A model generated the notes under the pieces. It did no database searches. It was not told the origin of the DNA and saw only the letters and a list, made by a program, of their open reading frames with translations. Position numbers and translations under genes: made by a program. From a virus (taxonomy: Duplodnaviria > Heunggongvirae > Uroviricota > Caudoviricetes), in the IMG/VR virus record IMGVR_UViG_2534681651_000007, positions 1-36,506 of that record: DNA of 36,506 bases. The stretch is one strand, 5' to 3'. Positions 4,014 to 5,544 of this stretch are shown here, piece after piece (within the stretch, counting starts at the first letter, position 1; the number at the start of each line of letters is the position of its first letter).

Positions 4014-4307
4014 TCAGTCATTACTGATAGCGCCATAGCGTGAGCGGTAATTACGCAGGCGCGGGTCAATTTCAGGGAAGTGGGTATATGTGGCTTTGCG
4101 GAATGGTCGGATTGATGTCTGGTAAATTCGCTCGCGCTCTTCTTTCTCTGCAAGCCATATGCAGTGGCGAAATTCCTTTTCCTCTTTTGTTTCCTGCGGT
4201 AGCGACATTATCCGGTCGTAGTTTTTTCTGAATTTATCCAGCACCTCCGATACGGAATTGCCGGAACAGCGGCGCACGTCGTCCGCACCATACAGAGGCG
4301 CTGGCAT
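4014..4307 (-). CDS. Hypothetical protein (97 aa)
   Basis: ORF with AGGAG Shine-Dalgarno 6 nt upstream of the ATG; packed between ssb and the next gene. Confidence 0.75.
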   Translation of the reverse strand: MPAPLYGADDVRRCSGNSVSEVLDKFRKNYDRIMSLPQETKEEKEFRHCIWLAEKEERERIYQTSIRPFRKATYTHFPEIDPRLRNYRSRYGAISND

Positions 4308-4320
4308 GATTTTCTCCTGA

Positions 4321-4836
4321 TTAAATTGCGTGAATAGCGTGACGAGGGAAGGGGAGAGTTACTGGCGCAAATGGTATATCGTCGTCAAACTCCATAGGTG
4401 GTTCGCTGTGATTTCCCTGCTGCTGAGGTTGCTGTCTTTGTTGCTGACCGTTATTTCGCTGAGGTGAAGACTGTTCATTGCCTCCTTGCTTGCCACCAAG
4501 CATTTGCATGGTTCCACCAACGCCCACGATGATTTCGGTTGTGAACCGCTCCTGTCCGCTTTGATCCTGCCATTTTCTTGTCCGCAATTTGCCTTCAAGA
4601 TAAACCTCTGAGCCTTTTCGCAGATACTCGCTGGCAATTTCTGCCAGTTTCCCGCTCATTACCACACGGTGCCACTCCGTCTGCTCCTTTTGCTCTCCAG
4701 TTTGCTTATCACGCCATTGTTCTGACGTAGCAACTGTAAGGTTTGCAAATGCCGTTCCTGATGGTGAATATCTGATTTCTGGATCGTGACCAAGGCGACC
4801 AATAATGATCACCTTATTTACGCCTCTGCTTGCCAT
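4321..4836 (-). CDS. ssb: Single-stranded DNA-binding protein (phage SSB) with atypical C-terminal extension
   Basis: N-terminus [27 protein letters not shown]...EQTEWHRVV...[24 protein letters not shown] matches the SSB OB-fold consensus; Gly/Gln-rich linker; acidic tip [11 protein letters not shown] present but followed by 15 more residues. Confidence 0.93.
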
Positions 4837-5544
4837 TTATGCCGCCTGTTTTAGTTCGTTAACTCTGATGTTCATTACCTGAACGCATTTAGCCTGCGCA
4901 TCCTCATTGCCAGCCATTAATTGCCAGTCATGCTGATAACGCTCGATGAGTTTTTTCTTGTCAGTTTCTGTTGATGCATAATCGCTGAAGTCTTTCAGGA
5001 TTTGTTCGCAGTCAACCGATGGAGATTTCTGGTTGGTATTTTCTGGTGATGGTTTGTTATCTGATGCTGGGATTGCCCATACCGGCAGCGATGGAGGGAG
5101 CCAGTAAAATCCTGTTCCATCCTTCAGTTTTGCCCTGTGCCACCCCTGCTTTTTATCGAGAGATGTTTGTGCGAAACCTTCCTCAAGGTTATACAGATAC
5201 CGACCGATTCCCCACTGAACGGCAGCGCGCTTCATTGCGCCAGAACGACCGCCTTTGACGGCTTCTACTTGCGTGTTTTCAGCAGCATCCCATTTGGTTA
5301 CCCATTCGGAATCAATCTTGATTGATATGCCGCATTCAACTCCGCCGTTGTTGGGAATATCGCGGTATTCATTGCGCCATCCTGCTTTGCCGCAAACATC
5401 GTCCAGGCGTTTCATGATTGCCCTGTTCGTGACATAAGCCAGCACCATAGCCCACACTTTTCCATCGCGTGTTTTACCGCTTTGCTGTATTCGCCATTCG
5501 ATATCTTCAGGGCTGAACGGTTCATCGAATTTATTCAAATCCAT
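4837..5544 (-). CDS. Rad52/Sak-like single-strand annealing recombination protein
   Basis: 235-aa ORF abutting ssb (stop/start adjacent); N-terminal region (...WAMVLAYVTNRAIMKRLDDVCGKAGWRNEY...) resembles the Rad52/Rad22 annealing-protein family as I recall it; occupies the slot of lambda bet/exo. Confidence 0.6.
   Translation of the reverse strand: MDLNKFDEPFSPEDIEWRIQQSGKTRDGKVWAMVLAYVTNRAIMKRLDDVCGKAGWRNEYRDIPNNGGVECGISIKIDSEWVTKWDAAENTQVEAVKGGRSGAMKRAAVQWGIGRYLYNLEEGFAQTSLDKKQGWHRAKLKDGTGFYWLPPSLPVWAIPASDNKPSPENTNQKSPSVDCEQILKDFSDYASTETDKKKLIERYQHDWQLMAGNEDAQAKCVQVMNIRVNELKQAA

Follow-up and report, generated by a model that had tools for sequence, protein, structure and literature searches.

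The free C-terminal DDDIPF of SSB (single-stranded DNA-binding protein) is a textbook hub: over a dozen proteins of genome maintenance are brought to single-stranded DNA (ssDNA) by way of it. What is one to make, then, of an SSB that possesses this acidic tip but does not end with it? The case considered here is the ssb gene within the viral record IMGVR_UViG_2534681651_000007 (IMG/VR database), the 36,506 nucleotides of which were analyzed as a whole and will be referred to as the window. The window is a P22-like Escherichia coli (pro)phage region resembling Kapi1 and CUS-3. The original prediction, made from the letters of the DNA, was that the tip is followed by 15 more residues (4321-4370) and hence is not terminal, and this proved to be exactly so. 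Judged by its sequence, the window SSB is a genuine classical SSB, and the peptide that follows the tip is a part of the protein kept by purifying selection. The gene is composed as follows:

4321..4836, minus strand: ssb gene, encoding a classical bacterial-type SSB of 171 residues (the "SSB-1" of lambdoid Rec modules) with an extension after the tip (open reading frame (ORF); Pfam PF00436, E=1.3e-38; PDB 1EQQ/7F2N, E ~1e-64; phrog_44)
4522..4821, minus strand: ssDNA-binding and tetramerization domain with the oligonucleotide/oligosaccharide-binding (OB) fold, residues 6-105 (Pfam SSB match)
4402..4500, minus strand: disordered linker rich in Gln, Gly and Pro, residues 113-145 (composition; predicted local distance difference test (pLDDT) of AlphaFold2; length and sequence variable among homologues)
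4369..4401, minus strand: host-like acidic tip, residues 146-156, internal rather than terminal (sequence; match to E. coli SSB)
4324..4368, minus strand: extension of 15 residues, residues 157-171 (sequence, conservation, dN/dS)
4321..4323, minus strand: TAA stop codon of ssb (sequence)

The protein has every sequence feature by which the classical SSB family (PF00436/TIGR00621) is recognized, except for a tip at the extreme C-terminus. It scores 184 bits against TIGR00621 (cutoff 54) and matched 1EQQ with an E-value of 1.2e-64 in a search of PDB, and ten of the eleven residues of its tip are those of E. coli SSB 168-178 (PPMDFDDDIPF), the one exception being Glu in place of Asp. The NCBIfam SSB models that align as far as the tip all end at residue 156, the tip Phe, and so residues 157-171 fall outside all curated SSB profiles. 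The protein ends in Ile171, and its final five residues, AIHAI, are non-acidic, so that it does not have a terminal aromatic residue of the type found in T7 gp2.5. An AlphaFold2 model of the monomer, built on an alignment of 58 sequences, was poor and uninformative (mean pLDDT 55, below 50 over residues 112-171 and below 45 in the tail).

The original prediction offered a sequencing problem, the loss of a stop codon, or a specialized SSB as possible reasons for the extension. The first is ruled out by the identity of the junction across hundreds of independent genomes. Of 5426 complete E. coli genomes, 407 contain a 121-bp stretch spanning the junction, 251 of them over its full length, and several independent and unrelated E. 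coli assemblies have it with 100% identity; there the gene has been annotated as ssb by the annotation pipeline PGAP. Phages ECP1, HK75 and epsilon34 encode the identical extension. When the best 120 homologues of the SSB were taken from a collection of 5.8 billion proteins (74-96% identity; Klebsiella, Citrobacter, Salmonella, Enterobacter), 116 were found to carry the extension, with conservative substitutions inside it (A/S, V/I, A/T, H/Y, A/V, I/L). The window ssb is itself a common allele. What survives of the three suggestions is the specialized SSB, in the form of a conserved class. The prediction had also named, as something that would speak against it, related phage SSBs that uniformly share the extension and function normally; so far as sequence can speak, they do share it. 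Two loci of Proteus-type and other prophages (L218 4695-5231 and L219 4669-5192, L-numbers being labels of loci collected for comparison) have a frameshifted ssb split into two ORFs, and the tail is still encoded there.

Recent loss of a stop codon is likewise ruled out, the extension being old, widespread and under purifying selection. Among nine diverged genes, the codons of the extension differ synonymously at many places (CCA/CCG/CCC, ACT/ACC/ACG/ACA, CTC/CTT, CGT/CGC and others), while the peptide PVTLPFPRH is invariant in the same nine. The pooled Nei-Gojobori method put dN/dS at 0.08 in the extension as a whole, 0.02 in its core PVTLPFPRH, 0.03 in the tip and 0.06 in the OB fold (first 112 codons). 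These values are rough, since they come from pooled pairwise comparison of few sequences, with synonymous sites near saturation in the wider set. Ten independent species-level genomes, picked only for having the tip followed by [AS]P, gave for the extension a pS of 0.52, a pN of 0.07 and a pN/pS of 0.14. The extension evolves like the OB fold, mostly by synonymous change (dN/dS ~0.08-0.14). An RNA element, a promoter, or a terminator lying over the extension was considered and rejected, none having matched there: the segment had no hit in Rfam (E<=1), and no promoter or terminator, both of which were looked for, overlaps it.

How far does the peptide reach beyond the relatives of the window SSB? 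The last 30 residues were searched against 1.84 billion cluster representatives, followed by further searches, and a profile made from a 44-column alignment of tails, which retrieved mainly gene fragments, was used to gauge the diversity of the motif. The searches yielded 60 distinct variants of the extension, all of them 14-16 amino acids in length, with the consensus [AS]P[VI][GT]L[PQ][YF]P-x-x-[ALT][IL][HYNW][ACV][ILM]-COOH. Every one of the 60 has A or S at position +1 and P at +2, as do all 51 loci from genomes, and the C-terminal residue is non-polar in all 60 and also in the variants of Pseudomonas and Pasteurellaceae. The window extension fits this class of tails, in its IPF-APV junction, its 15 residues, L at +5, F at +7, and C-terminal I. 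From these alignments the rules of the module may be read as [AS]P and a hydrophobic residue directly after IPF, 14-16 residues in total, and a non-polar C-terminus.

The same tail is found on proteins of several kinds. There are classical OB-fold SSBs, such as those of Vibrio phage Val-yong3 (ending in ...APIGLQYPALLNCM) and the conjugative IncN plasmid pNDM-ECS01 (L229 2006-2539), where the gene lies beside antirestriction genes; short PF00436 SSBs; SSBs of the K73 type, or type C (P0131); proteins like the SSB-2 of HK620 (P0126, L243); phrog_4477 proteins of 311-406 residues in rV5-like phages; and a protein of an Aeromonas phage. One carrier is not an SSB: the primase-helicase of Klebsiella phage KpS8 (L228 1-381), ending in ...DDDTPFAPIGLQYAKHAIYVI / ...GPDDDTPFAPIGLQYAKHAIYVI, whose gene is directly upstream of that of DNA polymerase. 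The module occurs in 144 of 541 phage records that match the tip, in 122 plasmid records, and in the genomes of 51 species (Enterobacterales, Vibrionales, Aeromonadales, Alteromonadales, Pasteurellales and Pseudomonas). There are local versions of it. In Pasteurellaceae (Glaesserella, L265) the protein ends in ...SPIHHGFSKHSIYVI, and the gene is next to topB in a context like that of an integrative and conjugative element (ICE); in Pseudomonas (L269-L279) the tail is a short one of nine residues, ...APLHHLAGA; and in marine gamma-proteobacteria (Oceanisphaera, Pseudoalteromonas, Colwellia and Glaciecola; L261-L268) it is ...APIGLQYPALL[NL][AC]M, often with rdgC adjacent. Going by these matches, tip and extension together are a contiguous and portable C-terminal module; five or more kinds of ssDNA-binding scaffold carry it, and so does a phage primase-helicase.

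Apart from [AS]P, the sole universal feature of the module is its non-polar C-terminus (AIHAI, AIYVI, LLNCM, HHLAGA), and this raises the question of whether the extension is a built-in degradation tag. The non-polar end would mark the SSB for ClpXP, ClpAP, FtsH or Lon, making it short-lived and sparing host replication, while the DDDIPF end of the host protein would be stabilizing. Parsell, Silber and Sauer are said to have found in 1990 that non-polar C-terminal pentapeptides destabilize cytoplasmic proteins in E. coli, and the AIHAI of the window would fit such a rule of composition, having non-polar last residues with a free carboxylate. The carriers, moreover, include temperate phages, plasmids and ICEs, which must coexist with the host. 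Nonetheless conservation is best in the N-terminal half, AP[VI][GT]L[PQ][YF]P, rather than in the last residues; rV5-like phages, which are virulent, have the module too, as does a primase-helicase; and a degradation tag gives no reason for an intact tip or for a length fixed at 14-16 residues. I regard this explanation as unlikely.

Since conservation of the extension could in principle reflect the needs of the next gene, the surroundings of ssb are of concern. The neighboring features in the window are these:

4014..4307, minus strand: abc2, coding for an anti-RecBCD protein of the P22 type, downstream of ssb (Pfam PF11043, E=8.7e-63)
4314..4318, minus strand: ribosome-binding site of abc2, AGGAG, within the 13-nt spacer between ssb and abc2 (TAATCAGGAGAAAATCATG) (sequence)
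4837..5544, minus strand: Rad52-like single-strand annealing protein, annotated as "Erf-like", upstream of ssb (Pfam PF04098, E=5.1e-26)

The order of this early-left recombination module is therefore that of the Rad52-like annealing protein, whose stop codon abuts the ATG of ssb, then ssb, the 13-nt spacer with its AGGAG, and abc2. Elsewhere the gene that comes after the extended ssb is abc2 in about 65 of the loci collected and that of an Rv2179c-like 3'-5' exonuclease in about 50, epsilon34 and a prophage of Enterobacter among the latter; in Klebsiella it is a distant Abc2-like gene, or else it is an unrelated gene encoding 97 residues. Genes for Rad52-like, ERF or Sak4 annealing proteins precede the extended ssb. 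Because the extension is retained whatever the next gene or the upstream annealing protein may be, it belongs to ssb and not to abc2. Conservation at the level of DNA, as an upstream region of abc2, was accordingly rejected: the extension stays with ssb in front of the exonuclease and the unrelated genes, and its synonymous sites are free to change. No gene was common to all carriers of the module among the phage, plasmid and genome loci compared.

Covariation with the annealing protein proved uninformative as an explanation. Annealing proteins of three folds (Rad52-like, ERF and Sak4/AAA_24) have in common a C-terminal domain of about 55 residues that ends in ...NIRxxELxxAA, seen in the window (4837-5010, the C-terminal third of the protein) and in L004, L204, L208 and L212. 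This domain has the look of a swappable one for the binding of a partner and is the same whatever the type of SSB, being paired with an extended phage SSB, a canonical one, or none at all. The ssb slot itself can be filled otherwise. In L004 and about 40 further P22-like loci of IMG/VR it is occupied, 23 nt upstream of abc2, by the gene for a 163-residue protein outside Pfam families that ends in ...YDDSIPF, a relative of the "SSB" of Vibrio phage K73 with a different scaffold and a terminal tip of the canonical type.

If the extension is so general, where is it missing? Within the clade of the window SSB, the protein ends at IPF only where a gene for an HNH endonuclease follows the IPF codon, and three such arrangements were found. 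In that of phage Sf6 (L002 2047-2526), the SSB (gp27) ends in DDSDIPF and is followed by an HNH protein of 159 residues (gp26). In the second, an HNH variant of 155 residues is found with an SSB ending in NFDDEIPF. In the third, Salmonella 103203_sal5 (L214 899-2256), an unrelated HNH protein of 130 residues comes after an ssb with the same NFDDEIPF end; there the extension has been deleted and the 5' part of abc2 lost, its ORF now starting with MSLPQETKEEK. The endonuclease ORF of the first two arrangements runs in frame into the extension, and in Sf6 the C-terminus of gp26 consists of the 14 extension residues. The GenBank entry of Sf6 carries a note that gp26 has 14 residues in common with an E. 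coli SSB. Sf6 gp27, like the ES18-type SSB-1, is the same gene as that of the window, in the same operon position and more than 90% identical over the residues they have in common; the difference is that Sf6 has the gp26 gene after the IPF codon and a canonical SSB end, whereas the window gene is uninterrupted.

Two of the three inserted HNH types, that of Sf6 among them, are I-KsaII-like (phrog_2340), gp26 being about 35% identical to I-KsaII, the product of an intron within polA of Staphylococcus phage K-like phages. The native C-terminus of phrog_2340 endonucleases, ...WHxxNGEGxNAx, has been replaced in gp26, from which it follows that the tail on gp26 is a by-product of the fusion: the endonuclease borrowed the tail, not the reverse. 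Members of phrog_2340 are situated directly 3' of ssb also in Phapecoctavirus Mt1B1_P17 (53% identity), in Vibrio phages D80 and K73, in Klebsiella VLCpiS13b, and in E. coli Sortsne. The SSB of D80 (L224 872-1405) has a truncated tip without IPF (...DFDDDRS), directly upstream of the HNH endonuclease gene. In Mydovirus, the endonuclease-free KB57 (L282 1235-1384) carries tip and extension, and in Iguana_ER37 (L281 1234-1659) the SSB ends in ...DWDEEIPF, with the endonuclease gene beginning two bases later. These sequences indicate that P22-like phages and Mydovirus acquired their insertions behind the IPF codon independently. The tips on the endonuclease-bearing alleles are heavily recoded in both lineages (MEFDDDIPF to MNFDDSDIPF in P22-like phages, DFDDDIPF to DWDEEIPF in Mydovirus), and for that reason the DNA encoding the tip is a putative site of cleavage. 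The pattern suggests that this DNA serves as the homing site of I-KsaII-like HNH endonucleases, with the boundary between tip and extension as the point of insertion. Although the family is found at or in the 3' end of ssb in many phages, the window has no such gene, and a tblastn search of the window found no homologue of the Sf6 endonuclease beyond the 14-residue tail itself. The window allele is on that account intact and uninterrupted, and presumably it is a targetable one, with 4369-4401 as the presumed target. A second and different HNH gene (155 residues, motif HKCDNPCCVNPEHL) lies between the gene for the annealing protein and ssb in about 16 loci, including L013, L014, L015 and L196 of IMG/VR.

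The sharing of 14 residues by gp26 and the extension might be taken to mean that the extension is a neutral scar, left when translation came to run on into former intergenic DNA, or into an endonuclease gene at its 3' end, once a stop codon had been lost or the homing endonuclease deleted, if not an error of assembly. It may be added that the DNA of the extension is 100% identical between ssb genes that are only about 80% identical elsewhere, those of the window and HK75 for example, an indication of recent recombination at the joint. Yet purifying selection, with its many synonymous changes, is evident in lineages that lack any endonuclease gene, the native end of the endonuclease was the one displaced in Sf6, length and motif are conserved across orders, and hundreds of independent assemblies agree. 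The idea is refuted on these grounds, and I give it next to no credence.

The phages of the Sf6 type work with an exposed tip, and this bears on another possibility, that the extension is a pro-peptide. It would be clipped between F and A, either after synthesis or when the protein binds ssDNA, unmasking DDDIPF-COOH, and up to that point the SSB would show no activity towards partners from the host. Conservation of the tip is as strict as it is in the host SSB (dN/dS 0.03), and at the junction F-[AS]-P never varies. A cytoplasmic protease that processes C-termini with F-A specificity is not known to me, however, and no protease gene was linked to the module among the neighborhoods compared. 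Even a clipped peptide, furthermore, would need some role in recognition to account for its conserved non-polar end and fixed length. A pro-peptide seems to me very unlikely, less probable than a degradation tag.

What might the extension do, if it is none of these? Compared with E. coli SSB and others that end in DDDIPF-COOH, the window SSB has the same OB fold, the same kind of linker rich in Gln, Gly and Pro, and a nearly identical tip, but the tip is internal, 15 conserved residues follow the Phe, and the alpha-carboxylate used by partners is absent from it. Canonical partners hold the tip by a hydrophobic pocket for Phe177 and a basic residue that grips the terminal carboxylate. In RecO, Arg132 anchors the carboxyl end of the SSB C-terminus (PMC3152348); the appending of green fluorescent protein (GFP) to the C-terminus of SSB abolishes the binding of ExoI, and viability of SSB-C-term-GFP fusions requires a wild-type copy of ssb (PMC7293020); and the last six residues of the HK620 SSB, NDYPPF, are needed for its cognate Sak4 (PMC5928155). 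With its Phe no longer C-terminal, the window SSB would have no alpha-carboxylate to offer to the basic residue in the pockets of ExoI, RecO, chi, PriA, RecQ and other proteins, and the SSB of the mobile element would thereby lack the usual way of engaging the SSB interactome of the host. By analogy with these precedents, in which the pockets of partners make use of the Phe carboxylate, an internal tip may be expected to do without canonical docking, and the altered docking expected in the original prediction is reasonable in the light of the RecO and GFP-fusion literature. Insertion of an HNH gene at the junction turns the gene into an ssb with a canonical end in the sister phages.

Loss of the usual partners could be the entire function. 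As a pure cap against the host, the extension would keep ExoI, RecJ, RecQ, RecO-RecA loading and Ung away from the ssDNA of the mobile element, no new partner being called for, and ssDNA would in consequence be channelled to the element's own annealing protein and induction of SOS avoided. The block to ExoI binding by residues appended at the C-terminus (PMC7293020) speaks for a cap, as do the neighboring genes, those for an annealing protein and an anti-RecBCD protein in the phage and for antirestriction in the IncN plasmid. The comparison with the engineered fusion of Dubiel et al. (2020) goes only so far: both append residues after Phe177, but the fusion is artificial and large, whereas the extension is natural, short, conserved, and under selection. 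Plain loss of the tip would do the job of a cap as well, and the strong purifying selection on tip and extension together, along with the fact that a primase-helicase has the module, argue for recognition that is specific to sequence. A pure cap is improbable, about as much so as a degradation tag.

The extension does away with the free Phe carboxylate and supplies a second conserved peptide, and most probably it thereby alters the choice of partners. On balance, it seems somewhat more probable than not that the extended tail serves for docking or regulation in a sequence-specific manner, its partner being other than the usual ones and probably encoded by the host. Specific docking is suggested by the conservation of tip and extension, the fixed length, the portability of the module, and the sharing of it by an SSB-like protein and a primase-helicase. 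The composite DDDIPF-AP-x-x-L-x-[FY]... would be a docking peptide distinct from the canonical one, and the partner would probably be encoded by the host, or else be the SSB-ssDNA complex itself, since every carrier would have to share such a gene of phage or plasmid, and none is so shared. There is precedent in T7, where the acidic tails of gp2.5 and gp4 both end in Phe and bind to the same site on T7 DNA polymerase. In one group of phages, likewise, a single kind of tail is found on SSB-like proteins (KB57/Mt1B1_P17) and on a primase-helicase (KpS8), with the difference that the aromatic residue is the last one in T7, while in the module it is internal and 14-16 residues follow.

Two more specific proposals were rejected. 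The stretch P-V-T-L-P-F resembles a beta-clamp-binding motif, such as Q-L-S-L-P-L of Hda, but this cannot be general, since PIHHGF of Pasteurellaceae and PLHHLAGA of Pseudomonas are without the pattern. A signal for translocation of plasmid SSBs by a type IV secretion system is implausible, most carriers being phages.

Several observations count against a docking peptide. Phages of the Sf6 type can live with an SSB that stops at the tip and with the extension fused to an endonuclease, and so growth does not require the extension on SSB. The middle part of the extension differs from lineage to lineage, the whole having only nine residues in Pseudomonas, and a variable middle and so short a tail would suit a plain cap or a degron no less than a docking motif. 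The perfect conservation of the tip is unexplained if its canonical use is blocked. To these may be added the roughness of the dN/dS values, already noted, and the AlphaFold2 result, a poor model of the monomer with an unstructured tail. The lambdoid SSB-1 proteins, in addition, are described as lacking experimental study in a treatment of lambdoid Rec modules by Casjens and co-workers (PMC12315714). A broader version of the docking reading is that the peptide is an interaction module specific to mobile elements, which retargets replication and recombination proteins to a hub probably encoded by the host or shields ssDNA from the host SSB interactome, with the junction doubling as an I-KsaII-like homing site and co-conversion moving the tail; this I consider possible, though rather doubtful in its entirety. 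Co-conversion during homing could be a way by which the tail moves between scaffolds.

The HK620 SSB (HkaK, or SSB-2) provides the instructive contrast, for it occupies the same operon slot upstream of abc2 but differs in fold, and its NDYPPF tip is truly C-terminal and is the docking element for the cognate annealing protein (PMC5928155). Some relatives of SSB-2 (P0126, L243) nonetheless carry tip and extension. The extension is apparently an undescribed conserved tail of SSBs in phages, plasmids and integrative elements of gamma-proteobacteria. A text search of the literature, with most subscription journals outside its scope, found no paper with strings of the motif (LPFPRH, PFAPIGL, APIGLQY, DDIPFAP and similar), nor anything relevant on C-terminal extensions of plasmid or phage SSBs. 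The passages on SSB in a 2025 survey of lambdoid Rec modules make no mention of an extension (PMC12315714), and a search of PDB sequences with the tail matched only the tip (E. coli or Klebsiella SSB), leaving the extension unmatched.

A large class of SSBs belonging to phages, plasmids and ICE-like elements thus retains the hub motif while covering it with a further conserved peptide, which implies that mobile elements systematically rewire, block, or regulate the SSB hub. The extended proteins are at present annotated as plain "single-stranded DNA-binding protein". The extension is relevant to recombineering, where pairs of annealing protein and SSB are chosen by the tails of the SSBs, and the endonucleases offer a concrete case of homing with an apparent target in the sequence encoding the ssb tip. 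Beyond that, the burial of the hub motif bears on the establishment of plasmids and on the conflict between phage and host.

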